DNA of 64,000 nt, from positions 674 through 64,673 of the forward strand of contig CAAECF010000109.1 in the NCBI GenBank assembly GCA_900754275.1, in the 5' to 3' direction. The translations under genes were made by a program, and so were the position numbers. Shown here one piece after another: positions 9,784-40,833 of this stretch. The stretch comes from an uncultured Collinsella sp. GTDB lineage: Bacteria > Actinomycetota > Coriobacteriia > Coriobacteriales > Coriobacteriaceae. The stretch's first letter is position 1. Each line of letters begins with the position of its first letter. The notes under the pieces were generated by a model. It did not search any database and was not told where the DNA came from. It saw nothing but the letters and a program-made list of their open reading frames with translations.

Positions 9784-10516
9784 GACCGTCATTATGGGAA
9801 CGGGCCGCATGGGCTCGCTCATCCGCACCACCGCCGAGGGCGTTGTCGACGCCGCCGGTCAACCCGTTTTTGATATCGTGGCCCAGATTGGCTTCGATTT
9901 GAGCAAGCTCGAGAACGCACCGGCTGCCGATGTGATTATCGACTTCTCGAACGTCGTGACCTTCGATGCCGTCGTCGCCTATGTCGAGCGCACGGGCGCG
10001 GCGTTGGTCTCGGGCACCACAGGCTACACCCCCGAGCAGATGGACCGTCTGCGCGAGCTGGGCCAGAACACCCGCGTTATGCACTCGGGCAATTACTCCA
10101 TCGGCATCGCAGCCCTGCGTCATCTAGTGGCCCAGGCCACGCGCGAGTTGCCCGGCTTTGACTGCGAAATCGTCGAGACGCACCATAACCAAAAGGTCGA
10201 CGCCCCCAGCGGTACCGCCAAGCTGCTGCTCGACGCCGTAGTCGAGGCCGAGCCCGAGACAGGCTACCACCCCGTCTACGGACGCGAGGGCATGTGCGGC
10301 GCGCGCGATCCCAAGGAGATCGGCATGCACTCGCTGCGCGGTGGCACTGTCGCCGGCGTCCACGAAGTGAGTTTCTTTGGCCAGGACGAGGAGGTCACGC
10401 TCACCCACCGCGCCACGAGCCGTCAGATCTTTGTCAACGGCGCCCTGGCAGCCGCGCAGAAGCTCGTCGCCCGCGAACCCGGCTTCTACACCTTCGACCA
10501 GGTCATGTTTGCCTAA
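9776..10516 (+). CDS. dapB: 4-hydroxy-tetrahydrodipicolinate reductase
   Basis: GTGRMG NAD(P)-binding motif and ETHHNQKVDAPSGTA signature. Overlaps the dapA stop by 8 nt (translational coupling). Confidence 0.9.
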   Translation: MIKTVIMGTGRMGSLIRTTAEGVVDAAGQPVFDIVAQIGFDLSKLENAPAADVIIDFSNVVTFDAVVAYVERTGAALVSGTTGYTPEQMDRLRELGQNTRVMHSGNYSIGIAALRHLVAQATRELPGFDCEIVETHHNQKVDAPSGTAKLLLDAVVEAEPETGYHPVYGREGMCGARDPKEIGMHSLRGGTVAGVHEVSFFGQDEEVTLTHRATSRQIFVNGALAAAQKLVAREPGFYTFDQVMFA

Positions 10517-10555
10517 CCAGGTATCAACCGAATCCACCCAAAGGAGAGATGGTAA

Positions 10556-11275
10556 ATGAGTAACGCAGCCGAGATGGATGCACAAGAGATTATCAACTAC
10601 ATCGCCACCGCGCCCAAAAAGACGCCCGTCAAGCTGTACGTGCGCGAGAAGCCCGGCATGAAGGTTGCCTGGGGCGACGCACATGTCTACGGCGGCCGTC
10701 GCGGCAAGACCGTCTTTGGCGACTGGGATGAGCTCAAGGCCATCCTCGATGCCAATGCCGACTCCATCGACTACTACGATGTCGAGAATGACTGCCGCAA
10801 CTCTGCCGTGCCCATGCTCGACCTTAAGGGCATCAACGCCCGCATCGAGCCGGGCGCGATCATCCGTGACCGCGTCGAGATCGGCGACCGTGCCGTCATC
10901 ATGATGGGCGCCATCATCAACATCGGCTCCGTTATCGGCGAGGGTTCCATGATCGATATGGGCGCCGTGCTGGGCGGTCGCGCCACCGTGGGCAAGAACT
11001 GCCACATCGGCGCCGGCACCGTGCTGGCAGGCGTTGTGGAGCCCGCCAGCGCCACGCCCGTCATCATCGAGGACGATGTCATGATCGGCGCAAACGCCGT
11101 GGTCCTGGAAGGCGTGCACGTGGGCAAGGGTGCTGTAGTTGCCGCCGGCGCCGTGTGCGTCGAGGACGTCCCCGCCGGCGCCGTCGTGGCCGGTGTCCCC
11201 GCCCGCGCCATCAAGATGCGCGACGAGAAGACCGACAGCAAGACCGGCCTGGAAGAGGGCCTGCGCCAGCTTTAA
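10556..11275 (+). CDS. dapH: 2,3,4,5-tetrahydropyridine-2,6-dicarboxylate N-acetyltransferase (DapH-type, hexapeptide-repeat)
   Basis: 239 aa. N-terminal DapH-specific domain followed by left-handed beta-helix hexapeptide repeats ([33 protein letters not shown]). RBS AAAGGAGAGATGG upstream. Confidence 0.8.
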
Positions 11276-11278
11276 TAG

Positions 11279-11306
11279 TTACGGCGTTTTACCAAACGCC
11301 GTAACG
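11279..11306. other. perfect 12-bp stem hairpin (GTTACGGCGTTT/AAACGCCGTAAC) immediately after dapH; no U-tract
   Basis: Seen directly in the sequence. Confidence 0.5.
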
Positions 11307-11459
11307 GCCCGACGCTGCAAACGCCCCTAAGCGGCAATCTGACGTTCAATCGTCGGTCGCGTACCGAAGTACGCTTCCCTCCTCTTTCACGTCACCTTGC
11401 TCGCTTAGGGGCGTTTTCGCTGACGTATGCTCGACCTGCAACGTAATTCAGCCCCAAGT

Positions 11460-11503
11460 AAAAAGGCCGAAGCCCTCATCCGGGGCTTCGGCCTTTATTT
11501 TTG
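11460..11503. terminator. bidirectional rho-independent terminator between convergent dapH and ndpA-like genes
   Basis: AAAAA-GGCCGAAGCCC-tcatcc-GGGGCTTCGGCC-TTTATTTTT. Confidence 0.8.
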
Positions 11504-11520
11504 CAGCGTCCAAGCGCAGT

Positions 11521-12534
11521 TTATCGATTCTCAATTGACCCGATATTCTTGAGCTCGATGGAGATGAGGCCGTTGGGCTCATTGACGAACTCGATGTACT
11601 CGGAGTTCGAACCCATCTCGGCCGGGAAGCTGATCTCGATGCCCGTGTCGGTACGGATCTTGTGATTGCGCACGGCCGCGCGCTCAACTTGCTTGCGCTC
11701 CACGGGAACGCGCTCAGGCACCTTCTCCTCAGTCAGTGCCGCGCGCACGCTCTCCTTGATAACTGGTTCGTCCTCAAAGACCTCATCGACGATATCCCAA
11801 GGCGGCAGCTCCTCGTCATCCTCGACTTTCTCGGCAACGGCAGCCTTAACCTTGGCGAGCGCCACGGCCGTGTTGGCACCGTGCTCCTCGGCGACTTCCT
11901 CGACCACACGCGTCACGGTGTCGATGACCTCCTTGCCCGATACCCCCGTGTCGCACTGCAGCAGGCCATCGGGAATGAGCATGCGATCCTCGCCGGCAAT
12001 CTTGCGCTTCTTATCCACATAGCCGATCTCCATGGTGCTTGCACGCACGATTGCATAGCTCGGCACCTTTTGCGAGGGGTTCGGCAGAATGGCGTAGTGG
12101 CGCGCGATGTCGTTGCGCACCTCCCCCTCTTCGCGGCCCACTTCGTGCATAAAAGCCTGCTTGGAGCCCAGCAGCATCACGGCAAACCAGCGGGCATCCT
12201 CATCGTCGTCAAAATCAGCCACGAGCACGTCGGTGGACTCGGCTTTCTCGGCTTTGGTGAGCTCGGAGGAGATAAACTCCGCAATCTGCTGCGACAGGTC
12301 CACGAACTCGCGCTCGCCAAAGAAATAGCCCTTGAGCTCACCACCAAACGCAGAGTTCTCGGCAAACGTGGCGCGTTTGTTGTCGGCCGAGGTACGAGCG
12401 CGCCGCAGGTGCGTGGTTACGAAATTACGCACGGTGCGGCTCTCGATATCCAACTCGCGCTGGCTCATAACGTTGACGGCAGAGTCAAAGTCCAGGATAT
12501 GCAGAATCGCGTGATTGATTTTCATATACGGCAT
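11521..12534 (-). CDS. nucleoid-associated protein, NdpA/YejK (NA37) family-like
   Basis: 337 aa. The N-terminus (MKINHAILHILDFDS) and overall spacing of conserved blocks resemble YejK; acidic central region. Confidence 0.5.
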   Translation of the reverse strand: MPYMKINHAILHILDFDSAVNVMSQRELDIESRTVRNFVTTHLRRARTSADNKRATFAENSAFGGELKGYFFGEREFVDLSQQIAEFISSELTKAEKAESTDVLVADFDDDEDARWFAVMLLGSKQAFMHEVGREEGEVRNDIARHYAILPNPSQKVPSYAIVRASTMEIGYVDKKRKIAGEDRMLIPDGLLQCDTGVSGKEVIDTVTRVVEEVAEEHGANTAVALAKVKAAVAEKVEDDEELPPWDIVDEVFEDEPVIKESVRAALTEEKVPERVPVERKQVERAAVRNHKIRTDTGIEISFPAEMGSNSEYIEFVNEPNGLISIELKNIGSIENR

Positions 12535-12636
12535 TCCGTTCTAGATCGATTTCGGCACGAACCAGTATAGCGGTCGAGCCCGCCCCAGGCGCATCGAAGA
12601 TTGGCGCATCGGGGACAGGTTGCTTTGTATCAATGG

Positions 12637-13797
12637 CTAGCGCAGGAGCTCGGACTGCCAAGCCTCGAGCTGTTCTGCCAAACTCTTGCCGGCAGCGGGC
12701 ACGTCGATCTGGGGTCGTTTGGGCAACAGTGCGCATTTAAGGATCGCCACGATGGTCTGCGAGATAAAGCGTCGCGTATCTTTGTCAAAGCCTTGCGCAG
12801 CCTGGAGCATCACGGGCAGACTCTCACGCAGATTTCCTGCGATATCCGCAAACCGTTCGGCGTCCGTAGCCTCAAACACGGAGAACAACGCATCTACAAA
12901 ACGCTCGCGCTCGCTAGGTGACACTGCAAGCAGCATCTCGCGAATGGAGCCATCAACGTATCGAGCACCGGCGGACAGGCGCTCACAGTATACGAAGTCG
13001 CAACCATCAACCACCCAGCTAAAGGGATTGTGCTGCAGCAGGCTGAACTCGGTGCTCTCAACGATGGCATAGTCCTCTTGTGTCTCGAACATCATGCCGA
13101 AGATCGACGACCGAGGTAGCGTCTTGTCGATTCGACCGGAAAGATCGGCAAAGGCGTTGCCGTTCAGAAACTCCTCGACGAACCCTGGACCATCATGGGA
13201 ATACGCCCGTTCGATTCGCTCACGGGCGACATCGGAGCACATCGCCGCACCGTACACCGCAAGGTTTCCGCCCTTGGAATGACCTCCGCACAAAAGCGGC
13301 CCGTCGATCGCATCCGCCGCCTCGTCCACATAACGCGCCGCGGATTCCTGGGCCGGCACAGGACACCGGAACGCCATGTTAAAGTCCTCTTTCCAGCCCA
13401 CAATCGTGCTGTCGGTCCCCCGGAAGGAAAGATAGCTAAACCCCGCCGGAAACCGGAACGCCATGGCTGCAAACTGCTCCGTCGCCACCACATCGCTCAC
13501 GGCACGATAGCCGCAAACGTGCACGCCGCGGTATCTGGGATTTGCTGCCACGGCCTCCAACAAGGCCCTGCTTCCCTCTGGGTCCCACAAGTCGTCAATC
13601 ATGTCCCGGTAGCACTCGGCACGCAGCAGTTCGCGTACGTCTAGGCCCTGCCAGTTCGTCAGCCCCGCCATATCACCCGGCAAGCGCAAATAGGACAACC
13701 ACGCAAAGACCAGGCTATCCACCGCGCAGAACGGCCGCTCCTCAAAGGGATCAAACGCCGTCTGGACATAGGTCAAAAAATTAGGCGAATCCGACAT
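12637..13797 (-). CDS. Mbeg1-like/DUF2974 alpha-beta hydrolase (lipase class-3-like)
   Basis: GHSKGG nucleophile elbow with downstream Asp/His candidates; 386 aa. Confidence 0.6.
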   Translation of the reverse strand: MSDSPNFLTYVQTAFDPFEERPFCAVDSLVFAWLSYLRLPGDMAGLTNWQGLDVRELLRAECYRDMIDDLWDPEGSRALLEAVAANPRYRGVHVCGYRAVSDVVATEQFAAMAFRFPAGFSYLSFRGTDSTIVGWKEDFNMAFRCPVPAQESAARYVDEAADAIDGPLLCGGHSKGGNLAVYGAAMCSDVARERIERAYSHDGPGFVEEFLNGNAFADLSGRIDKTLPRSSIFGMMFETQEDYAIVESTEFSLLQHNPFSWVVDGCDFVYCERLSAGARYVDGSIREMLLAVSPSERERFVDALFSVFEATDAERFADIAGNLRESLPVMLQAAQGFDKDTRRFISQTIVAILKCALLPKRPQIDVPAAGKSLAEQLEAWQSELLR

Positions 13798-22750: not shown

Positions 22751-22924
22751 CACGTAAACCACCTCGCAATCGTAAATCCAGTTTAGCATCAAGCTATTGC
22801 ACCAAAGACAGCAAGCCCCCTTGATGAGTTGATGGTATCTGTTAAATGTCACGTACGATTCGCATCTGGTGGGTACCCTGATGGCTACACGAAACGAAGC
22901 AGATTTACACCGGGAGGACCCCGT

Positions 22925-23875
22925 ATGACAACCAAGTACACCGACGCGCCGCGCACGCGCGTCATGACGCCAGCATCGCTCAACAACGGCGTGCACGAGA
23001 ACCATTCCATCGGACAGACCATGGCCATCGCGCCCAAAAAGGGCCTGTTTGACGACATTTCCATTCCCCAGATCATCGCCGGCGCCGCAGCTGCCGCCAC
23101 GAGCGTCGCACTTGCCTCCAAGATTGGTATCGCTGGTTCAGTAATTGGCGCCGCCGTGAGCTCGGTCATCACCGTTGTGTCATCGCAGGTCTACCGCCAC
23201 TTTATCTCTGCCAGCGCCGAAGCCATCAAAGGTACGCACGCCGCCGTCGACTACCCCGCCGGCGCCTACGAGCCCGTTGAGTTTAATGCCGAGGAGCACC
23301 TGGGCGGCGCCGCGACTACGCAGGAGATGCGCCAGATTGCGGGGCGCGCGACCACGGCGCGCGTTGCTCCCGACAGCCTGCGCGCCAAGGCGGCGGCAGA
23401 GCGCAGTCAGACGCAAAAGAAGGTCATCGTCTTCTCGATCGCCATCGCCATCGTCGCGGTCATCGCCTGCGCCGGCGCCATCCTTATCACCACCGCCGGT
23501 GAGGGTCTGGGCGAGCGCCCCGAGCCAATCCTTTCGTCGCGCACGACGGAAAGCGATGCAAATGGCAACACCCAGTCGCAAGACCAGCAGGCACAGACGG
23601 ACGGCACGCAAGACAGTTCCACCTCTACCGATTCGTCCTCGAATACCCAAAACCAATCGCAGGGCGCCGATTCTTCTGTGAACAACAGCGGCGCGCAATC
23701 CGGCACGACCGACTCAAGCCAAACGACTGACGGTTCGCAGCCGAACACGGGAGGCCAGACGAGCGACACCACGTCGGGAACGGGCACAGCAGACAGCAAC
23801 AACAGCAATTCGAGTGGCACCACATCGGGCACGGCATCTGACAGTTCAAGCCAAGGCACGACATCGGACAACTAG
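22925..23875 (+). CDS. membrane protein with two TM segments and long S/T/Q/D/G-rich low-complexity C-terminal tail
   Basis: GGGAGG RBS before the ATG at 22925. Hydrophobic stretches (IIAGAAAAATSVALASKIGIAGSVIGAAV; IVFSIAIAIVAVIACAGAILI) followed by about 130 aa of S/T/Q/D repeats. Confidence 0.5.
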   Translation: MTTKYTDAPRTRVMTPASLNNGVHENHSIGQTMAIAPKKGLFDDISIPQIIAGAAAAATSVALASKIGIAGSVIGAAVSSVITVVSSQVYRHFISASAEAIKGTHAAVDYPAGAYEPVEFNAEEHLGGAATTQEMRQIAGRATTARVAPDSLRAKAAAERSQTQKKVIVFSIAIAIVAVIACAGAILITTAGEGLGERPEPILSSRTTESDANGNTQSQDQQAQTDGTQDSSTSTDSSSNTQNQSQGADSSVNNSGAQSGTTDSSQTTDGSQPNTGGQTSDTTSGTGTADSNNSNSSGTTSGTASDSSSQGTTSDN

Positions 23876-24010
23876 GCGCTGCATCCCCAGATAGGCAACC
23901 TGTACAACGGACGCGAATCGATAGCGGTTCGCGCCCGTTTGCCTTGGGCGACGAGATGGCAAGCCCCGCGCGATGGTAAGATGCTTTGGTGTGTAAAGAG
24001 GAGATTTGCC

Positions 24011-25309
24011 ATGAGCAAGACAATAGTTACGCCCACGCTTTCGCTGGGCAACCACATCTATCTGTATCGCCTGCTGCGCGATGCGATTGGATGCGGCAAG
24101 CAAACGTTTATGACGCAGGTCGAGGAGGCACTCGCCGCTGGTGACATGGCCGCTTATGACCTGGGCTTCGAGTCCACGCGCGAGCTGCTCGAGGAGCTCG
24201 ACGACTGCATTAAGCTGACCGTCTTTAAGGGCGGTCGCCTGTATGCCACGGTCATCGCCAACGAGGCCTGGGATGCCGCCCTTGCCAAGGGCGAGGACAA
24301 GCCCAAGGCTGCCAAGGGAGCCAAGCAGTCCTACAAAAAGAAAAAACGCGGCGAGAAGGACCTCAAGGCCGTGCGCCCCAAGCACGTTAAGCGTCCCGAG
24401 CCTGAAGCCATGGTTGAAGCCGTGCCAGAATCCGAGCCCGAGCCCGAGATCGAAGTCGCTATTGAGGTAACGGCAGAAGCCGAAACCGAAATCACCGCTA
24501 CGACCGATCCCGAAGTCATATCCGAGCAGGAAGCCACTGCGGAGCTCAACGAGGCTCCCAAGTCGACAGCAGAAGAAGCCGCTAGCCAACCTGAGGCGTC
24601 TGCGCTCCAAAACAGCGATGTCTTTGGCGACGAGGCCGAGGACGATCAGCCCGCCGATCAAGACGCTACCGAGTCGGCGCCGAAGCCCGAGACGCCGCAG
24701 CCCGCCATCTCGCTCACGGTCGTCTATGACCCCGAGAACGCCAACGCCGGCATCACCACTATGGCATCCACGCCCATCGAAGCAAAGTCGAGCGTCGAGA
24801 ATGAGAGCGCGATGCAGGTTGAGTTTGAAACTGCAGCTGTAGACGCGCCCGTCACCGTGAAGCCCGCAGATTCCGCAGTTAAGCCGGAACCGGTGCCTGA
24901 GCCCGCACCCGTCATCGAATCCGTGCCCACCTCTACTTGCGACCAAGTTCCCGCACCGGCACCGGCTTCGGTACCCGCAGCGGCCCCAACCCCCGCACCC
25001 GCAGCGCCCGCCATCCCTGAGGACTTCCCCGTCGATTTCGCAACCGAGGTCTTCTGCCCCGGCCCGCTTCTGCACCAGTTGTCGACCTATCTCCCCTACG
25101 GCGCCGACACGCTCGGCATTGTCGGCGAGTACTACTGGATCGCCCGCGAGCGCGGTACCATCGAGGCCGCGCGAAACCGCGCAAACTTCCCCCTGTGCTA
25201 CACGCAGGCCGGCGAGCGCCGCGAGGTTACCGTGCGCATCCGCCGCAACACCACCGGCGGTCTCGGAGCCGCCTGGGCCATCGACAAGGTCGAAGCCCCG
25301 GTCGAGTAA
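24011..25309 (+). CDS. hypothetical protein with basic patch and E/P/A-rich acidic low-complexity centre
   Basis: AAGAGGAGA RBS before the MSKTIV start. The 540-aa antisense ORF is G/R/L-rich and rejected. Confidence 0.5.
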   Translation: MSKTIVTPTLSLGNHIYLYRLLRDAIGCGKQTFMTQVEEALAAGDMAAYDLGFESTRELLEELDDCIKLTVFKGGRLYATVIANEAWDAALAKGEDKPKAAKGAKQSYKKKKRGEKDLKAVRPKHVKRPEPEAMVEAVPESEPEPEIEVAIEVTAEAETEITATTDPEVISEQEATAELNEAPKSTAEEAASQPEASALQNSDVFGDEAEDDQPADQDATESAPKPETPQPAISLTVVYDPENANAGITTMASTPIEAKSSVENESAMQVEFETAAVDAPVTVKPADSAVKPEPVPEPAPVIESVPTSTCDQVPAPAPASVPAAAPTPAPAAPAIPEDFPVDFATEVFCPGPLLHQLSTYLPYGADTLGIVGEYYWIARERGTIEAARNRANFPLCYTQAGERREVTVRIRRNTTGGLGAAWAIDKVEAPVE

Positions 25310-25352
25310 AAAACGGCCTCGGATAGCCAATTTGACCATCCGAGGCCGTTTG
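25308..25352. terminator. bidirectional rho-independent terminator
   Basis: AAAAA-CGGCCTCGGAT-agccaatttgacc-ATCCGAGGCCG-TTT. Confidence 0.75.
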
Positions 25353-25364
25353 AATTCAGGCCTT

Positions 25365-25757
25365 TTAGTTGTCATCGGTGCATATAGACACCAGAGAAGC
25401 AAGCTCATCCTCAAGTTGCGGAGCAAAGTATCTAAAAGAAACCTGCGCTCCAGTCGGTATCGACTCAATCATATTCGCAGCATTATCTGAAACTCGGTAC
25501 GATGCAGTTTCACCTGTCTTCAAATCCTCTATTGAGCAGACAGCGTCTTCAGCATCAATCGACCTAAGCACGCCTTTTCCTTGTAACATCACATCGGCAT
25601 GCCCGCCAGCTATTTCTAATGAACCTGAGTCTGTCGCAGTCACTTCTCCGGAACCTCCGCGCGATATCTCTTCCTTTGTTGAACAGCCCACCAATGAAGC
25701 CATCAGCACCAAAGACAGAGCTAGTCGAATCGCCCTACTTCGAAAAAGTCGTTCCAT
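25365..25757 (-). CDS. lipoprotein (LVGCS lipobox)
   Basis: Signal peptide with LALSLVLMASLVGC, then a 110-aa soluble domain; lower GC than neighbours. Start within 25757-25784 is uncertain. Confidence 0.5.
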   Translation of the reverse strand: MERLFRSRAIRLALSLVLMASLVGCSTKEEISRGGSGEVTATDSGSLEIAGGHADVMLQGKGVLRSIDAEDAVCSIEDLKTGETASYRVSDNAANMIESIPTGAQVSFRYFAPQLEDELASLVSICTDDN

Positions 25758-26862
25758 AAGTCCACGCATAATAGCTCTGATCATACTTCAGGAAGGATAA
25801 AGATGAATTCCAGCCGTCCGCTATGCCAATCATCTGCCTTGTCTCTCCAGTTTTCTTACCAGTAAGTGTGGCGTAAGCCTCCGCTGTTACAGAATGGGCT
25901 GATCCGTTGTACAAACTCGCATGTAAAACATTCGGTCTATTAGAGTTAATCTCATTTTGAATGCTCGCGATAGCCGGAGAGGAGACAGTGCGGGCGATAA
26001 GAGTACTTCCTCTGCTTGCGCAGTAATTTGTAAACCCCGTTGCACAGGTTGATATCGGCGTTCCACCCAAAACAACGCCGGGAACAGTCTGTTCTTCATC
26101 GGAAAGAGCATGGGTATTGGTGTAATTCCATATCTGCATATATTGCGAAGGGTCGCTATATAAATTGGCAATGCCATACAGTTCCGCAACGTTCGAAAAA
26201 GCTGTCACCATACAAGCATAGTGGGCGGTAAGCCTCTTAATCTCGCTTTCATCATATGACATAAACTGAGAAATGGAACGAAATCCAGATACTGTGTAAT
26301 CCTGCATTTGAGTTGCGTAAATTACAACATCGTTCCAGCTTGAAGGTTTATTCGATAAAACGACAGGCCGTCCTTCTATGGAAACAGCCGGGATTGTTCT
26401 TCCGCAATTTGTTGTTATTGAACCGTCCAAAGATTGCACGCCGAATTCGAATGGATTGATCATTACGACTGGGTTATTGAAAGAATAAGACTCGACACCA
26501 AGATCTCCTCCCCGATCCATAGGGCTGACTAAGCCGTCTCCAAAACGATATCCCGTAAGTATTTCATCATCTGAAGCATCTAAAACCAAATAGCCCGCGG
26601 CTCTATTGGATGTCACAACCGGAACAATGTAACCAAGCGGGGACCCATCAACATCTACAAAAGGAATAGGGTCAGAAGGCGTATACGAATAGCCGAGGAG
26701 TCCCTTTATATATTTATCGGCAAGCTCTTGCGCAATTTCAGAAGTAAATTGTATCTGCTCACCATCAATATTGCCCGTCGAAGCAAAAACCTCTTTCGGA
26801 CGTGCGGCTAAGGCGACAATTGAAGACGCGACAAGTTGCAGAAAACGACGACGCGAAAGCAT
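25735..26862 (-). CDS. Tat-signal secreted protein, possible papain-like/C39-like cysteine peptidase fold
   Basis: MLSRRRFLQLVASSIVALAA twin-arginine signal. C-terminal region has Cys...His...GW spacing (TNYCASRG ... HASLYNG ... GWNSS). Lower GC. Confidence 0.5.
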   Translation of the reverse strand: MLSRRRFLQLVASSIVALAARPKEVFASTGNIDGEQIQFTSEIAQELADKYIKGLLGYSYTPSDPIPFVDVDGSPLGYIVPVVTSNRAAGYLVLDASDDEILTGYRFGDGLVSPMDRGGDLGVESYSFNNPVVMINPFEFGVQSLDGSITTNCGRTIPAVSIEGRPVVLSNKPSSWNDVVIYATQMQDYTVSGFRSISQFMSYDESEIKRLTAHYACMVTAFSNVAELYGIANLYSDPSQYMQIWNYTNTHALSDEEQTVPGVVLGGTPISTCATGFTNYCASRGSTLIARTVSSPAIASIQNEINSNRPNVLHASLYNGSAHSVTAEAYATLTGKKTGETRQMIGIADGWNSSLSFLKYDQSYYAWTYGTTFSK

Positions 26863-33684: not shown

Positions 33685-34527
33685 CTAACCCAGCAGCTTA
33701 TCCAGCGCCACCGCAATGCCGTCTTCGTTGTTATTGGCGGTCACCATCTGGGCCACGGCCTTAACCTCGTCGACCGCGTTGCCCATGGCAACACCAGTGC
33801 CGGCCCACTCAATCATGGACTTGTCGTTCTGGCCGTCACCAAACGATACGACCTCGCTGGCATCGATACCCAACTTGGACAGGGAGCCCTCGAGCGCGCG
33901 AGCCTTATCGATGCCGGGCGCCGTAAACTCAAAGTACCAGTCGGCCGTAAACATACCCGAAAGCGTCTGAGTAAAGGGCGCGTACATCTCCTCGTAATGC
34001 GCTTGCAGATAGGCCGGGTCTCCCGCGGTGAGCAATTTGTCCACCGGATAGGCATCTACAACCTCATGGAGGCTCTCGACCTCACGGATCTTAAGGTCGC
34101 ACGCATCGCGCTCGTATTTGACGATATTCTTCTGCGAACCGTCCGGCAGTGTGATCATGCAGCGATACGAGTCCACGACGTGCAGGTCCCGACCGAGCGA
34201 GATCATGGGAATCACGTCAAAGTTGCGCAGGTGATCGAGCAGACGATGCAATTCGTCGACCGGCATGGCCTGGTCAAACAGTACCTCGTCGGTCTGGGCA
34301 TCGACTACGTGTGCACCGTTAAAGGCCACGAGCAGGCCATCATGATTGTGTAGGTCGAGCTCCTGACCAAGGGCGCGAAGGCCCCATGCAGGACGGCCCG
34401 AAGCCAGAATGAGCTTGATGCCCGATTCCTGTGCCGCGAGCAGCTTCTCGCGCGTACGCGGGCTGATGACCTTTTGGTCGTTGGTAAGCGTACCGTCGAT
34501 ATCCATTGCGATGGCTTTGATTGCCAT
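33685..34527 (-). CDS. Cof-type HAD-IIB sugar phosphatase
   Basis: MAIKAIAMDIDGTL motif I, LASGRP, C-terminal GDGQNDKSMIEWAG. GGGAGG RBS. Confidence 0.8.
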   Translation of the reverse strand: MAIKAIAMDIDGTLTNDQKVISPRTREKLLAAQESGIKLILASGRPAWGLRALGQELDLHNHDGLLVAFNGAHVVDAQTDEVLFDQAMPVDELHRLLDHLRNFDVIPMISLGRDLHVVDSYRCMITLPDGSQKNIVKYERDACDLKIREVESLHEVVDAYPVDKLLTAGDPAYLQAHYEEMYAPFTQTLSGMFTADWYFEFTAPGIDKARALEGSLSKLGIDASEVVSFGDGQNDKSMIEWAGTGVAMGNAVDEVKAVAQMVTANNNEDGIAVALDKLLG

Positions 34528-34676
34528 ATATGCCTCCCTGTCATTGAACAGCCTTGTCTGAGCCATCATACAGAACACCCGCGGCGGCGCTGTTTGCAAC
34601 GGGAAAAATGTCATATTGTCCCGAACATGAACGGCGCGTGGTCGTAAAGCTTTATCGCTCAGGTCAAATACGTCTG

Positions 34677-35351
34677 CTAGCGACGCTCATCCGTCGGTGC
34701 GCCCTCGACGATCGCGATGCCCGCCGATGCACCCAACGCGCTGGCGCCGGCCTCGATGAATGCGCAAGCCTCTTCATAATTATGGATACCGCCCGCAGCC
34801 TTGATTGCCACGGCATCGCCGAGCACCTCGTGCATCAGCCGCACGTCCTCGAGCTTAGCACCGCCATAGCTTCTGCCGGTCGATGTCTTAAGGAATCCCG
34901 GCTTAGCCTCCAGCGCAATCTCACAGACGCGACGCTTGGCGACATCGTCGCCGTCCAGCTTGCACATCTCGACAATCACCTTGTCAGTGATGCCATGCGC
35001 GCGACAAAAATCAGCAATGGCAGTCATCTCGCGCTCGATGGCAACAAAATCGCGGTCCTCGACCGACTCCTGATTCAAAACGTAGTCAATCTCGGTAAAG
35101 CCGCGCGCAGCGTATTCCTCAAACCTCGCAAGCTTCTCCTCAAGCGTCATAGTGCCCTGAGGAAAGTCGATAGCGCCGGCAAGGATGATGTCAGAGTCCT
35201 CGAGCATGGCGCGACCCGTCTCGTACTCCTGCAGGTTCGCAAATACGCAGCGGAAGTTGTACCTTAACGCCTTCTCGACATACTGCTCAAACGTGTCCTC
35301 GGGGGCATCGATATAGTCGATGTATTTATTGATGGGTTTGGCAAACGTCAT
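34677..35351 (-). CDS. deoC: deoxyribose-phosphate aldolase family (DeoC-like class I aldolase)
   Basis: FLKTSTG Schiff-base lysine region and IKAAGGI motif. Confidence 0.7.
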   Translation of the reverse strand: MTFAKPINKYIDYIDAPEDTFEQYVEKALRYNFRCVFANLQEYETGRAMLEDSDIILAGAIDFPQGTMTLEEKLARFEEYAARGFTEIDYVLNQESVEDRDFVAIEREMTAIADFCRAHGITDKVIVEMCKLDGDDVAKRRVCEIALEAKPGFLKTSTGRSYGGAKLEDVRLMHEVLGDAVAIKAAGGIHNYEEACAFIEAGASALGASAGIAIVEGAPTDERR

Positions 35352-35572
35352 GCTGGGCCTCCTTGTTCAGGACCGACAACCAATCCGTGGGTTCACGCGA
35401 AAAACCACGTTCAATGTACGCCCGATACGCAAGGGCAGCGTCCTCATTCCGACAAGCGGTATGAAATTAGCCTTAAAAGTATATTCATGGACAGCGAATG
35501 GCGCCGCACGCGGATGCCGACAGCAAGACATCTCCCCCTCTCAATACACCCTCATGCCCATTCAAAATAGCA

Positions 35573-35664
35573 AGGGGCCCGTATCCCAACGGATACGGGC
35601 CCCTTTCGGCCATGACCTATCTCAGCAACAAAGACTACTTGCGGTGAGCGCGGTAGAACTCGAT
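35573..35664. repeat. attL-like direct repeat: copy of the pgi terminator hairpin plus 32-bp identical core (last 10 codons and stop of pgi)
   Basis: GACTACTTGCGGTGAGCGCGGTAGAACTCGAT (35633-35664) is identical to 39137-39168. The hairpin GGGGCCCGtATCCcaacGGATaCGGGCCCC matches the one at 39075-39106. Confidence 0.6.
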
Positions 35665-36128
35665 CGCACCATCTTATCCGCGCCGGGGCACGTTCGCATA
35701 GCGTGGCGCGTGACGGTTGCAAAACCACCCCATTTGAAACAAACGCAAAAAAGTACTTGCAAAGACACGTTCCGACATATAAGTTGATAAAAGACCGCCG
35801 TTGCGGTTTTAAGTAGATCGAGCATATGAAGTTTCAGTTTTTAGCGTGTAAGAGAAAGAAGATCGGCAAAGTACAACCCCAAACGCAATGACAACTTAAT
35901 GAGGTAACTGCCACATGTGAGGCACCCAGGGCATTGCTGTCTCGATTTTGAGCACGATGCCTTCCGCCTTGCATGGGCCGTTCCATCCCGCCCCTGCAGC
36001 AACTGCCTCACGGGCTCATTGAAAACCGCATAGCACCCCAACGTCAGCACATCACCCACGGCAAGCACATCACTCACGACAACCAACACATCAACAAACA
36101 GCACGAACATCAACCGATTGGAGAAGCT

Positions 36129-37019
36129 ATGACAAACCACCACGCTGAAGACGGCGATAAGAAAAGCATTTTGGATGCCCGCATTGAGCGAGCATATGCA
36201 AACGAATATGACGCCGCCTTTGCCGCCGCGACCATCAAGAACTACGCGTCGCTACCGCTCGCGACGATCTTGGCCGACCACCCTCAACTGCTGAAGCGCT
36301 GCACAAGGATCATGGGCGACCCCGACATTCGCAAGCTGACAGACCCCTATGCCCCAAAACGCGACAACGATTCGTACGTTCTTACCGTAGGCTGCCTAGC
36401 CCATATGCTTACGGCGCTCGACACGAAACTCAAGCTCGAATGGGAACCCGACGAGCGTCATGAACTCGAAAGCAAGCGGAACACCCTGCGCACCGCACTG
36501 TTCCTTCCGTTGGACGGCCTCAAGCGCTGCAACGTCGAGCTCAATACACAGGCGCAGCAAAAGCCCGGGACCACGGGGCAGAAAACTCCAAGACCCCATG
36601 CGGCCATCGTCGACCGCAACCGATATAACCGCATGACCGCGCACTTTTCCGCCGAGGGAGCAGCCATAAGGACGCTGATCGACCTGCTGTGCCTCCTGAG
36701 CATCAACGAGCTATTTGAGGGCTATCTCGCCCTTGTTCCCGCGACGGCACCCAAGTCGGTAGCAAAGATCATCGAGACCTGCAGACGCCAGTTTGAGCGC
36801 CATCGCAATGGCAGCGAGATGAACGCCAGCATCGCGCAGTACTACGCGGCTCATTACAAAAATGACGGATGTGCCCCTATCGAGCATCAGCTGCGGCTCG
36901 CCTACACCACGCCCGTCGCAACGCTCCATCGCTTTGGAACCCTTGGCGCTTGCGAGCCGCACGGACAGGCAGCCTGCCCCACAACCGAGCTCGATCTCAG
37001 GCTCGGACGAACCCTGTAG
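36129..37019 (+). CDS. hypothetical protein (inside the inserted element)
   Basis: GGAGAAG RBS before the MTNHHAEDG start; 296 aa, no recognisable motifs. Confidence 0.4.
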   Translation: MTNHHAEDGDKKSILDARIERAYANEYDAAFAAATIKNYASLPLATILADHPQLLKRCTRIMGDPDIRKLTDPYAPKRDNDSYVLTVGCLAHMLTALDTKLKLEWEPDERHELESKRNTLRTALFLPLDGLKRCNVELNTQAQQKPGTTGQKTPRPHAAIVDRNRYNRMTAHFSAEGAAIRTLIDLLCLLSINELFEGYLALVPATAPKSVAKIIETCRRQFERHRNGSEMNASIAQYYAAHYKNDGCAPIEHQLRLAYTTPVATLHRFGTLGACEPHGQAACPTTELDLRLGRTL

Positions 37020-37082
37020 CCCGCCAGCCCCTCCGCGGGCAGCGACTCTATTCCGCAACACCACCAACAGAAAGGAGTCCTC

Positions 37083-37700
37083 ATGGACACCAATCATTCC
37101 CCCATCATCAGCCCCCTCACCATGCGTGAATCCGCCCGAGGTATCACGCTCACCAGCATTTACGATGAGATGCTCGCCCGTCGCGAGCTCTTCGTCATGG
37201 GAAACATCGAAACCCCGATGGCCCACGACCTATGCCAGCAGATCCGCCTGCTCGATGCCACCGACCCCAGCCGCCCCATCACCATATTTGTCGCCAGCGC
37301 CGGCGGAAGCGTGCGATCGGGTCTTGCGATCTATGACGCCATGCGCCTCGCATCGTGCCCTATCCGCACCGTCTGCCTGGAATTCGCCGCGTCCATGGGC
37401 GCCGTGATCTTTATGGGCGGCGACGATCGCCGTATGGCGCCCCATGCAGAGCTCATGATTCACGACCCGCTGATCCCCCAGGGGGCAGGCGGCTCGGCAC
37501 TTGCGCTGCAGGAAACCAGCCGGCGTCTCATGCAGACCCGCAAGACCCTCACGCAAATCCTCTCGGACCGCAGCGGCCTCACGCCCAAGCGCATCCAGTC
37601 CCTCACTGCAAAAGACACCTACCTTTCGGCCGAGCGCGCCGTCGAGCTCGGCTTTGCCCACGAAATCCTCTCGACCACCAAGGAGGTCGCCCATGTCTAA
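37083..37700 (+). CDS. ClpP/S14-family serine protease-like protein
   Basis: FAASMGAVIF (GxAASMG catalytic Ser) and MIHDPL (His of IHQP) motifs; 205 aa. Confidence 0.7.
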   Translation: MDTNHSPIISPLTMRESARGITLTSIYDEMLARRELFVMGNIETPMAHDLCQQIRLLDATDPSRPITIFVASAGGSVRSGLAIYDAMRLASCPIRTVCLEFAASMGAVIFMGGDDRRMAPHAELMIHDPLIPQGAGGSALALQETSRRLMQTRKTLTQILSDRSGLTPKRIQSLTAKDTYLSAERAVELGFAHEILSTTKEVAHV

Positions 37701-38997
37701 CCTCGCCAGCCGCCTCGCCGCATCTGAGTCCGCATCGTCCACCATCCTCGCCAAGGATCGAACGCTTTCCTGCGACACCCGCCAAACGGGACTCAACAAC
37801 AACGCACTTGTAATCGGCCCCTCGGGAGCCGGCAAGACCCGAAACGTCCTCAAGCCCAACCTGCTGCAAATGAACGCAAGCTACATCGTGCTCGACACCA
37901 AAGGCACGCTCTGTCGCGAAGTGGGACCCGTGCTGGCAGCCCACGGTTACCGCGTGCAATGTCTCAACTTCGCCGACCTCAACACCGTCCCGGCCCTTGC
38001 GCCCGGCATCGAGCGCTGCGGCTACAACCCCCTGAGGCACATTCGCCGCAAGGCGGACGGCAGGCCCAACCAGCAGGACATCCTCTCGGTGGCAAAGGCC
38101 ATCTGCCCCATCGAGGACAACAACCAGCCTTTTTGGGATCATGCGGTGGCAAACCTGCTGTCGTGTCTTATCGCCTACGTCACCGAACAGCTACCCGCCG
38201 ACGAGCAGACGATCAGCTCGGTCATCAAGCTGATCGAGCACCTGCAGGACGGTGCCACGGCCCGATTGTTTGACGATCTGATCACGACCGACCCCCAAAG
38301 CTATGCCCTCTCGCTATGGCGGCGCTACGCCATTACGCAAAATGCCGAGCGCATGCACGCGAGCATCGTCGGCATCCTTGCCGAAAAGGTCATGTGTCTG
38401 GGATTCGACGGTGCGGCACAGCTCTATCGTGAGTGCCATCAGGTGGACTTCGCTTCCATGGGACACACCCCCTGCGCCCTGTTTGTAACCGTAAGCGATA
38501 TTGACCGCAATCTCGATCCGCTGACCGGCCTCTTTATTACGCAGGCGTTTATGGGCCTCATTCGCGAAGCCGATAGGCAGCCCGACGGCAGCCTGCCCGT
38601 GCCCGTGCGCTTTATGCTCGATGACTTCGCAAATCTGCAGATCCCCCAGATCGACAACGTGCTCTCGATTATCCGAAGCCGCAACATCTGGGCAACGCTG
38701 CTATTGCAGTCGACCAACCAGCTCGATGCGCTCTACGGCGAGGCGCGAGCTCGCTCCATCATGGGCAACTGCGACACGCATCTGGTGCTGGCGTTCCAGG
38801 ATCCCGAGAGCGCCCGGGTGTTTTCCGACCGCGCCGACGCACTGCCCAGCACGCTCATGGCGACGCCGATCGATCGCTCGTGGCTCTTTGTACGCGGTCG
38901 CACTCCCGAACAGGTCGAGCGCTTTAGGCTCGAAGACCATCCGCTCTACGGGGAGCTGCCCGAAGCGCAGCGAGACCATGCGGAGGCCGAGATCTAG
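37693..38997 (+). CDS. type IV secretion coupling protein (VirD4/TraG/TraD-family conjugative ATPase, short form)
   Basis: Walker A GPSGAGKT, Walker B-like LDDFANL. AGGAGG RBS; start overlaps the ClpP-like stop. Confidence 0.8.
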   Translation: MSNLASRLAASESASSTILAKDRTLSCDTRQTGLNNNALVIGPSGAGKTRNVLKPNLLQMNASYIVLDTKGTLCREVGPVLAAHGYRVQCLNFADLNTVPALAPGIERCGYNPLRHIRRKADGRPNQQDILSVAKAICPIEDNNQPFWDHAVANLLSCLIAYVTEQLPADEQTISSVIKLIEHLQDGATARLFDDLITTDPQSYALSLWRRYAITQNAERMHASIVGILAEKVMCLGFDGAAQLYRECHQVDFASMGHTPCALFVTVSDIDRNLDPLTGLFITQAFMGLIREADRQPDGSLPVPVRFMLDDFANLQIPQIDNVLSIIRSRNIWATLLLQSTNQLDALYGEARARSIMGNCDTHLVLAFQDPESARVFSDRADALPSTLMATPIDRSWLFVRGRTPEQVERFRLEDHPLYGELPEAQRDHAEAEI

Positions 38998-39074
38998 GCG
39001 CAGGGTTCTCGCAGCGCGCGGCGCCCCGGCGATGTTCCGCAAGGGCCGTGCGCCCCGGGACCACGGCAAAGCAA

Positions 39075-39168
39075 AGGGGCCCGCATCCGATAGGATACGG
39101 GCCCCTGACTATAAGGCGCGATGCGTTAACAGCAGCGACTACTTGCGGTGAGCGCGGTAGAACTCGAT
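39075..39168. repeat. attR-like direct repeat contiguous with the intact pgi 3' end (terminator hairpin plus 32-bp core)
   Basis: See the 35573-35664 feature. Confidence 0.6.
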
Positions 39169-40833
39169 GAGCGCCTGGGTCGAAGCGTCCTGCTCGGCCT
39201 TGGCGGCGTCGTCGTGGAAGGCCGGGGTGATCTGCTTGGCAAGCTGCTTGCCCAGCTCGACGCCCCACTGGTCGTAGGAGTCAATGCCCCAGACCGTGCC
39301 CTCGACAAACGTGATGTGCTCGTACAGGGCGATGAGCTCGCCGAGTGCGAACGGGGTCAGCGTGTCGCCGAAGATCGAGGTCGTCGGACGGTTGCCCTCA
39401 AAGCAGCGGGCCGGGACGATCTGCTCGGGCGTACCCTCGGCACGAACCTCGTCGGCCGTCTTACCAAAGGCGAGTGCCTTGGTCTGGGCCAGGAAGTTGC
39501 CCAAGAACAGCTCGTGCACGTCCTGACCGCTGTCGGTCGCAGGGTTGGCAGTGTTGGCGAAAGCGATAAAGTCGGCCGGAACCACCACGGTGCCCTGGTG
39601 CAGCAGCTGGTAGAAGGCGTGCTGACCGTTGGTGCCGGGCTCGCCCCAGAAGATCTCACCGGTGTCGGAGGTCACAGCGCTGCCGTCCCAGCGGACATGC
39701 TTGCCGTTGGACTCCATGGTGAGCTGCTGCAGGTAGGCCGGGAAACGGTGCAGATACTGGCAGTACGGAAGCACGGCGTGGCTCTTGGAACCGAAGAAGT
39801 TGACGTACCAGACGTTGAGCAGGCCCATCAGCGCGACGGCGTTGTTCTCGAGCGGGGTGTTGCAGAAGTACTCGTCGATGGCATGGAAGCCCTCGAGGAA
39901 CTGCTGGAAGCGCTCGGGGCCGAGCACGACGATCAGCGACAGGCCCACGGCGGAGTCGACGGAGTAGCGGCCGCCGACCCAGTTCCAGAAGCCGAAGGCG
40001 TTGGCGGGGTCGATGCCGAAGGCCTCGACCTTCTCGAGTGCGGTGGAAACGGCGACGAAGTGCTTTGCCACGGCCTCGGCGTTCTGCTCATCGGAGCCGT
40101 CGATGGCGCCCTGAGCCTTGAGCTGCTCGAGCATCCAGGTCTTGACTTCGCGGGCGTTGGTGAGGGTCTCGAGCGTGGTGAAGGTCTTGGAGACGATGAT
40201 CACGAGCGTGGTCTCGGGATCCAAACCCTTGAGCTTCTCGGCCTGATCGTTGGGGTCGATGTTGGAGATGTAGCGGCAGTCGATACCGGCGTCGGCGTAG
40301 GGACGCAGGGCCTCGTAGGCCATGACCGGGCCCAGATCGGAGCCGCCGATGCCGATGGACACCAGGTGCTCGATCTTCTTACCGCTTACGCCCTTCCACT
40401 CACCGGAGCGCACGCGCTCGGCGAAGGCATACATGCGGTCGAGGACCTCGTGCACGTCGGCGACGACATCCTGGCCGTCAACGATGAGCTGGCCCTTCTC
40501 GCTTGCCGGACGGCGAAGCGCGGTGTGCAGAACAGCGCGGTCCTCGGTGGTGTTGATGTGCTCGCCGGAGAACATGGCGTCGCGGCGCTCCTCGAGCTTC
40601 ACCTCGCGGGCAAGATCGCACAGCAGCTTGACGGTCTCATCGGTCACCAGGTTCTTGGACAGGTCAAAGTGCAGGTCACCAGCGTCAAAGCTCAGCTTGT
40701 TCACACGCTCGGGATCGGCAGCGAACCAGGCCTTGAGGTCGATGCCCTCGGCCTCGAGCTTCTCCTGATGGGCCTCGAGCGCCTTCCAAGCGGCGGTCGA
40801 CGTAGCGTCGATAGGTGCGGCAACAGTTGCCAT
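39139..40833 (-). CDS. pgi: glucose-6-phosphate isomerase (long eukaryote-like form)
   Basis: 564 aa from the ATG at 40833 (GAGGAGG RBS). PGI signatures DxxGGRYSxxSAVG and GxLxxxHxxTxxxLK regions. Confidence 0.9.

Follow-up and report, generated by a model that had tools for sequence, protein, structure and literature searches.

The stretch analysed here, 64,000 nt of an uncultured Collinsella sp. (assembly GCA_900754275.1, contig CAAECF010000109.1, positions 674 to 64,673 of the forward strand; hereafter the window), carries a three-gene cassette on the 3' side of pgi, and we describe this cassette together with the DNA that connects it to the chromosome. The gene for glucose-6-phosphate isomerase, pgi, encodes 564 aa on the minus strand (39139..40833; Pfam PGI, E 1.7e-203). 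Convergent with it, on the plus strand, are genes for a hypothetical protein of 296 aa with no family match, the fast-evolving and variable third component of the cassette (36129..37019), for a ClpP-family serine protease of 205 aa (37083..37700; Pfam CLP_protease, 1.8e-45; triad S104/H127/D178), and for a 434-aa P-loop ATPase resembling VirD4 and other type IV coupling proteins (T4CPs) (37693..38997; Pfam T4SS-DNA_transf, 2.6e-31, and TraG-D_C, 8.6e-20). Past the cassette, again on the minus strand, come a deoC-like gene of 224 aa (34677..35351), whose match to Pfam DeoC scores 21.8 bits and is below the cutoff of 23.8, and a gene for a HAD-family hydrolase (33685..34620, with its ATG at 34527 and a complete upstream region, P2, at 34528-34620; Pfam Hydrolase_3 in precomputed annotation). 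Pfam and NCBIfam agree with the cargo given in a preliminary description of this DNA, namely a VirD4/TraG-like protein, a ClpP-like protein and a 296-aa hypothetical.

The cassette reads as an operon. Its leader (36040..36115, plus strand), as read from the sequence, holds four copies of CA(C/T)ATCA(C/A) spaced 18-21 nt apart and then a ribosome-binding site (RBS), GGAGAA, and the same motif occurs four to five times before the first gene of a diverged allele, which we call cassette 2 (related loci L014 and L091); the repeats may represent a putative operator or RNA element. A 348-aa open reading frame (ORF) is an upstream extension of the 296-aa one, and the GGAGAA motif precedes the ATG at 36129. 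The RBS of the ATPase gene, AGGAGG, lies within the 3' end of the protease gene and the two genes overlap by 8 nt, so that translation of the ATPase is predicted to be coupled to that of the protease. Some database entries, P0001 and P0002 among them, join the ClpP-like and VirD4-like proteins in a single chain of 637 aa at 99% identity, with 47 members in one cluster; such proteins could be explained by a frameshift at the 8-nt overlap and may be natural fusions or sequencing errors.

The end of pgi and its terminator are present twice in the window. A 32-mer, GACTACTTGCGGTGAGCGCGGTAGAACTCGAT, the reverse complement of which is the last nine codons of pgi plus the stop, has two exact occurrences (35633-35664 and 39137-39168; 32/32 identical), with 0.00 chance matches expected in shuffled sequence when three mismatches are allowed. 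The proximal copy (39137..39168, minus strand) is contiguous with pgi and is its functional 3' end, with synonymous differences only between strains, and the distal copy (35633..35664, minus strand), assigned through its match to the pgi end, is a non-coding relic. Beyond a spacer of ~30 nt, which is unlike between the two copies, each stop codon is followed on the pgi strand by a hairpin of the form GGGGCCCG..CGGGCCCC that scores as an intrinsic terminator: the proximal one, between the convergent pgi and VirD4-like genes, has 14 pairs (39075..39106, minus strand) and the distal one 15 pairs (35572..35605, minus strand), and the two are 88% identical over 33 nt. Only two such hairpins were found in 64 kb, with 0.05 expected, which rules out a repetitive extragenic palindromic (REP)-type sequence or a widespread terminator. 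The preliminary description was right to see a genuine duplication of the pgi terminus and terminator, and the doubt raised there, that it might be a REP-type sequence found at many loci, is removed.

Related loci were collected in three ways: an exact look-up of the pgi protein, which was identical on 24 contigs that were read, led to ten human gut contigs and one genome from NCBI, a scan with one genome per species placed the window in the aerofaciens group of Collinsella and gave about 25 further Collinsella loci, and a metagenome scan with the VirD4-like ATPase as query added 79 loci. Handles beginning with L refer to loci from these sets. Four Collinsella species genomes (L013, L018, L033 and L035; pgi 99% identical) are free of the cassette, and in them pgi is followed by the spacer, the hairpin, a ~35-nt deoC-like remnant and the HAD gene, which starts 154 bp past pgi. 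Because such true empty sites exist in related Collinsella, the 3.5 kb beside pgi in the window is accessory DNA; the insertion on the 3' side of pgi that had been proposed from the window is upheld, and the empty site that had been suggested as a check was found. The same comparison disposes of a crossover within the coding end of pgi, as the preliminary description had implied, since it places any exchange in the spacer or hairpin. An integration target of tRNA type is likewise ruled out, there being no tRNA in the window, and a foreign base composition was considered and set aside (guanine-cytosine (GC) content of 50-65% in the cassette and 54-65% in the flanks, with no clear anomaly).

We next aligned 38 cassette carriers to compare haplotypes. 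The distal copy of the pgi end is present in 16 loci, the window and 15 others, and is missing from 22 of the 38 carriers. What lies beyond it varies. It may be the deoC-like gene, which travels with the distal repeat and is present in some carriers only; deoC preceded by what remains (~400 bp) of a second cassette; or, as in L014, a second cassette in full. L014 thus has two allelic cassettes in tandem, with a pgi-end/hairpin copy before each. The proximal hairpin is a single allele across all carriers. Identity of 32/32 between the two copies is specific to the window strain, and in other strains they differ at 1-5 positions. The distal stop codon has changed from TAG to TGG in L007, L011, L019 and L109, further changes are found in L026 and L107, and in L111, L115 and L117 a ~100-bp deletion has removed the distal copy and kept the deoC-like gene and the cassette-2 remnant. 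The distal hairpin has a loop (35586-35590) that occurs among strains (L007, L009, L020, L114 and others) in two reverse-complementary states, GTTGG or CAACA on the pgi strand, with a constant stem, and this difference looks like a loop-inversion polymorphism.

The far end of the cassette is most readily understood from carriers without the repeat. In carriers without a distal copy, such as L001, and in loci such as L091 that have the second allele only, the cassette ends in ...CGGATA(A/T)GAT(G/A)GTGCG and runs straight into CGA(C/T)AAA...(A/G)GGAGGCA(C/T)ATATG, a stretch that comprises the HAD 5' untranslated region (UTR), its RBS and the start codon. Empty-site genomes have a HAD upstream region collinear with this cassette end, which is continuous with the HAD gene in L001, L091 and cassette 2 of L014. 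Alignment of these upstream regions showed that the window carries a truncated copy, P1 (35665..35745, minus strand), ending ...GGATAAGATGGTGCG on the pgi strand. P1 stops at GGTGCG and is followed directly by ATCGAGTTC..., the last 30 nt of pgi, and the second, complete HAD upstream region is found past the deoC-like gene. The joint between P1 and the pgi fragment (35664..35665, no strand assigned; GGTGCG|ATCGAG in pgi-strand reading) is identical in all 16 genomes with a distal copy. The window therefore reads, from pgi onwards, pgi with its end and terminator, the cassette, the 5' part of the HAD upstream region joined to the second pgi end and terminator, the deoC-like gene, the complete HAD upstream region and HAD. 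It thus contains two partial duplications, one of the pgi end and terminator and one of the 5' part of the HAD upstream region.

This structure is as expected if one illegitimate junction joined a cassette haplotype to a deoC haplotype, and we consider it probable, as part of a single reading of the locus, that the joint is such a junction and no att core, that the interval between the pgi terminator and HAD is a recombination hot spot with alternative cargo in Collinsella, and that the cassette itself is a functional, non-conjugative module. The direct repeat is accordingly most likely the scar of a recombination event and not an att pair made by an integrase. In keeping with this, the distal block matches the empty-site block at 96 of 136 positions and shares with it the loop sequence and the right flank, against 80 of 137 for the proximal block, and the distal copy decays among strains in which the proximal one changes at synonymous sites only. 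As to how the joint was made, we infer a single illegitimate event that would have brought the last 30 nt of pgi against the 5' part of the region upstream of HAD and so placed the cassette and deoC haplotypes in tandem. Homology-facilitated illegitimate recombination is one option, and a Campbell-type single crossover of a circle through the ~95 bp of pgi-end/terminator homology is another. From then on the cassette would have spread, been swapped and been lost mainly through homologous recombination in the conserved flanks. Duplication joints formed by homology-facilitated illegitimate recombination, or by Campbell-type insertion through homologous recombination, are known, and the locus shares with them a single novel junction and a direct repeat of the homologous segment that is later not maintained; it differs from them in that the event here cannot be reconstructed and in that the joint is without microhomology.

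The preliminary description had taken the repeats for attL and attR. In that account the 3.5 kb would be a cis-mobilisable or integrative-mobilisable element inserted site-specifically at the pgi 3' end/terminator, with its integrase and any relaxase lost or supplied in trans, as for a cis-mobilisable element (CIME); the excised circle of such an element would read P1-GGTGCG|ATCGAG...hairpin-TTTGCTTTGCC. We regard this as unlikely. In its favour, direct repeats of the target flank the insert in the window, related genomes have empty sites, and the empty site resembles the left part of the proximal block joined to the right part of the distal one, as an attB should. Against it stands the absence of the second att in the carriers that lack the distal copy, where the cassette end passes collinearly into the HAD 5' UTR; the presumed end of the element proves to be a chromosomal upstream region in truncated copy. 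In addition, the distal copy decays and in some strains is deleted, and cassette alleles diverged to 68% occupy the same site without repeats (L092). On these grounds the attL/attR assignment was not sustained.

The companion statement of the preliminary description, that no integrase or relaxase is encoded nearby, held within the range searched: no Pfam match to either was present within ±10 kb in 10 strains (precomputed annotation), among window ORFs of at least 280 aa, or in the related loci inspected, about 60 in all. No relaxase domain was found in the cassette or its flanks by domain annotation, a search of which oriT was not part. Accretion of integrative and conjugative elements (ICEs) and CIMEs at the 3' end of a housekeeping gene is known from ICESt1, ICESt3 and the CIMEs at fda of Streptococcus thermophilus. 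The insert described here resembles them in its position on the 3' side of a glycolytic gene, in the direct repeats of the gene end in the window strain, in the tandem related units of L014 and in a unit without an integrase of its own. It is unlike them in that a second repeat is missing from most carriers, its far end is the region upstream of a chromosomal gene, an integrase-bearing partner was not seen at the site in any of the loci, and its cargo is not a transfer module.

Several points weigh against an origin of the repeat by recombination scar. The tandem cassettes of L014, each behind a pgi-end/hairpin copy, are what ICE/CIME accretion would produce, and the identical joint before three right-hand contexts (deoC, cassette 2 and the cassette-2 remnant) fits repeated site-specific integration, although one joint followed by homologous exchange downstream would equally give the three contexts. 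A window of 64 kb leaves room for an integrase encoded in another part of the genome and acting in trans, the joint lacks microhomology by which one illegitimate mechanism could be told from another, and counts such as 22 of 38 come from loci sampled through similarity to pgi or to the VirD4-like protein and are not population frequencies. With a recombination scar still the better account of the repeat, the mobile-element aspect of the locus is ordinary, that of a variable islet at a hot spot of the chromosome, and it cautions against inferring integrases from a single genome.

Other cargo at the same site is consistent with a hot spot between the pgi terminator and HAD. L032 has GntR, phosphotransferase system (PTS) and SIS genes there, C. 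intestinalis has a superfamily 1 (SF1) helicase and a diverged cassette, and L118 has a further 2-kb islet between the VirD4-like gene and pgi. This islet (L118 8305-10320) is of low complexity and encodes an XRE-type helix-turn-helix protein (102 aa), a 128-aa protein and a 307-aa protein with transmembrane (TM) and coiled-coil segments, and we take it as another sign of an insertion hot spot.

The part of the locus worth following is its cargo, in which a ClpP-like protease is strictly paired with a VirD4-like ATPase that has no membrane anchor. The pair is found outside conjugation clusters and is accompanied by a rapidly evolving third gene. The ATPase has an intact Walker A motif (GPSGAGKT at residues 42-49, with K48) and a Walker B motif that reads DDF (D310-D311) and not DEF. 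It scores 252.2 bits against NCBIfam NF045973 (CD1115 family), for which the cutoff is 250. Its best annotated relatives, the CD1115 T4CPs of Firmicutes plasmids such as those of Paenibacillus and Clostridium perfringens, have in common with it the domains T4SS-DNA_transf, TrwB_AAD_bind and TraG-D_C and the Walker A motif; the plasmid proteins, however, are 596-620 aa long, possess two TM helices and have relaxase, PrgI, VirB4 and cell-wall hydrolase genes as neighbours, whereas the window ATPase is about 30% identical to them and is without their N-terminal anchor of ~100-130 aa. Its maximal hydropathy over 19 residues is 1.30, compared with about 2.6 in the plasmid T4CPs. All nine homologues examined from the Coriobacteriia clade likewise have no two-TM N-terminal anchor, no insertion of ~30 aa, and DDF in place of DEF. 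No type IV secretion system (T4SS) or relaxase genes (VirB4, PrgI, hydrolase) were found near the ATPase gene in any inspected locus of its clade, and a sequence search for solved relatives returned none at E <= 1e-3. On these features the ATPase reads as a derived, non-conjugative relative of coupling proteins.

The ClpP-like protein falls below every NCBIfam ClpP cutoff (154.6 bits against 249 for NF001368, and 126.4 against 308.6 for TIGR00493). Its best PDB match is the ClpP structure 6cfd (4.8e-33), on which the catalytic motifs of S104, H127 and D178 align, and it is nearer to cellular ClpP than to phage prohead proteases (154 compared with 95 bits). It therefore has the fold family and the Ser-His-Asp triad of ClpP, the core of ClpXP and ClpAP (MEROPS S14), and differs from ClpP in being an accessory, strain-variable copy whose neighbour is a T4CP-like ATPase of the FtsK/HerA superfamily and not an AAA+ unfoldase. 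A phage or satellite origin of the module was rejected: IMG/VR contained no relatives of the ATPase, the GenBank phage collection gave weak ATPase matches (~26-33% identity), mostly on unannotated faecal contigs, and PHROGs returned for the ClpP-like protein a generic prohead-protease similarity only.

The two genes keep company well beyond Collinsella. In 46 of the 47 metagenome loci with enough flank, and down to about 40% identity, the ATPase gene has a ClpP-like gene no more than 1.2 kb away; these include 22 of the 23 loci at 35-55% identity, on contigs of 41-65% GC. Besides the pair there is no conserved neighbour in these loci, and T4SS genes are absent from them. The pair usually has next to it, upstream of either ClpP or the ATPase, a gene of about 230-320 aa that shows no detectable similarity from one lineage to another. 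One Coriobacteriia contig (L094, 5310-12967) carries two VirD4-like paralogues, 62% identical, each preceded by its own variable gene of ~320 aa, and a single ClpP-like gene common to both. The C-termini of the VirD4-like proteins of L094, L101, L023 and L014 cassette 2 consist of an acidic stretch and then I-P-F, I-E-F or E-F-D-L, and the window protein ends AEAEI without such a tail; by analogy, the acidic tails are reminiscent of the tails or loops with which ring ATPases dock on protease cores.

The 296-aa third protein is the variable member of the cassette. It has no match in Pfam, NCBIfam, PADLOC or PHROG, and a HMMER search over 1.84 billion representatives retrieved 26 proteins. An AlphaFold model built with distant members added is all-alpha (predicted local distance difference test score, pLDDT, 73.5; predicted template modelling score, pTM, 0.72), and no meaningful neighbour of this model was found in the PDB or BFVD. 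The protein is ~40% identical between alleles whose ClpP is 84% identical.

We also assessed selection on the cassette, computing the ratio of nonsynonymous to synonymous substitution (dN/dS) in comparisons with close strains and with cassette alleles of 67-84% protein identity. For the VirD4-like gene dN/dS was 0.11-0.15, rising to 0.27 against the most distant allele, L092, and for the ClpP-like gene it was 0.09-0.16 in most comparisons and 0.33 and 0.36 in two. The third gene gave about 0.4 in deep comparisons and 0.8 or more in close strains, where substitutions are few. Purifying selection acts on the genes for the protease and the ATPase. The cassettes of the window and L092 have diverged further at synonymous sites (dS about 0.7-1.0) than the adjacent pgi genes (0.38), from which we conclude that the alleles predate the flank or have been exchanged independently of it. 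The three ORFs are intact in nearly all carriers examined, in alleles down to 68% identity at the pgi site; a few carriers, such as L002 and L019, have truncated or frameshifted ORFs.

The element had been called decayed, a view that intact ORFs, low dN/dS and conservation of the pair beyond Collinsella do not allow. In its strongest form it would make the cassette what is left of a dead conjugative element, its coupling protein together with some hitch-hiking genes that serve no function today, and this we regard as very improbable. The ATPase does score just above the cutoff of a conjugative T4CP family, and no other transfer genes remain, as one would expect of a remnant. The selection data contradict it, with near-universal full-length ORFs and dN/dS of about 0.1-0.15. 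Loss of the anchor and the change from DEF to DDF are, moreover, conserved family-wide and so are not random decay, and the ClpP-like partner has been kept across distant lineages in all but one of the 47 loci.

If the cassette is functional, as is probable, the question is what it does. The genes around relatives of the module offer one indication. In the Olsenella relative it stands beside a TPR-S1/CSD protein (Pfam S1CSD-TOTE-2; PADLOC PDC-M16B, 8.9e-22) and a Mokosh-like SF1 helicase, in C. intestinalis beside the helicase, which has a weak DUF2726 match, in Enorma beside DarT-NADAR, and in Thermophilibacter beside a weak TPR/S1CSD protein and a Schlafen/AlbA-like protein. A passage of PMC12458937, which cites Aravind et al. 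2022, gives TOTE as TPR, OB, TBP, Effector conflict systems. Because presence is patchy, alleles replace each other at a hot spot, one component is hypervariable and the neighbours are of defence type, a conflict system, anti-phage or anti-plasmid, and not a transfer apparatus, is the most likely single function of the module, although we put this forward tentatively. Defence modules of two or three genes that combine an ATPase with a protease exist, IetAS being an example. With IetAS and with the TOTE/PADLOC PDC-M16 systems the module shares an NTPase and a protease in one operon, patchy occurrence at a variable spot and a fast-evolving extra component; unlike them, the window cassette has no TPR-OB or helicase gene.

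The case for a defence module is weakened on several counts. The third protein has no recognisable fold, and the argument for defence is drawn from neighbourhood and evolutionary pattern only. In PADLOC-DB v2 the third and ClpP-like proteins had no match and the sole match of the cassette was that of the ATPase to mad8, which is weak (1.4e-07); the PDC-M16B and Mokosh matches belong to neighbours of the relatives and not to the window cassette. Literature searches on ClpP with VirD4, TraG or defence, and on TOTE with ClpP, returned nothing that links ClpP-like with VirD4-like proteins. The same two observations, the want of a strong PADLOC model match and the closeness of the protease to cellular ClpP rather than to prohead proteases, would suit a cassette that is functional in some other way, as an accessory ATP-dependent protease for quality control or regulation, or as a helper giving chromosomal or mobilisable DNA access to a conjugative T4SS present elsewhere in the cell; helpers consisting of a T4CP only do exist in mobilisable elements. 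We think such a role doubtful. A coupling protein without a membrane anchor is, from its sequence, unlikely to dock on a T4SS channel, and a housekeeping protease would not be expected to be present in some strains only, to be replaced by other alleles, or to come with a hypervariable third gene and neighbours of defence type.

For the conflict system that we tentatively prefer, a working scheme can be outlined. We infer that the ATPase would form a ring and act together with the ClpP-like protease, and that the variable protein could serve as a sensor or adaptor. A more specific form of this scheme, speculative and in our estimation improbable, is a new ATP-dependent protease machine in which a coupling-protein ring of the FtsK/HerA superfamily would replace the AAA+ unfoldase and the helical protein would guide the recognition and destruction of DNA-protein complexes that enter the cell, for instance those with phage terminal proteins or plasmid DNA piloted by a relaxase. 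Were this true, it would be an undescribed immune system derived from conjugation hardware and widespread in gut bacteria. No description of such a protease-ATPase module was found in the literature or the defence-system libraries searched. An immune or conflict role of any kind would make the module a new case of conjugation machinery recruited for defence, with a non-AAA+ ring ATPase beside a Clp-type protease, and since Collinsella is abundant in the human gut, presence or absence of the cassette at strain level could affect phage and plasmid traffic there.

Elsewhere in the window, a 769-aa ORF at 7474-9783 combines an Orn/DAP decarboxylase (LysA-like) domain with a dihydrodipicolinate synthase (DapA-like) domain and is an apparent fusion of two lysine-pathway enzymes. 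The interval 10124-13797 encodes a 37-kDa nucleoid-associated protein (NA37), an Mbeg1-like protein and, in an ORF of 331 aa, a protein that belongs to no family; at 22829-26862, Pfam has no match for any of three long ORFs (348, 540 and 375 aa). Both intervals may be other accessory regions.

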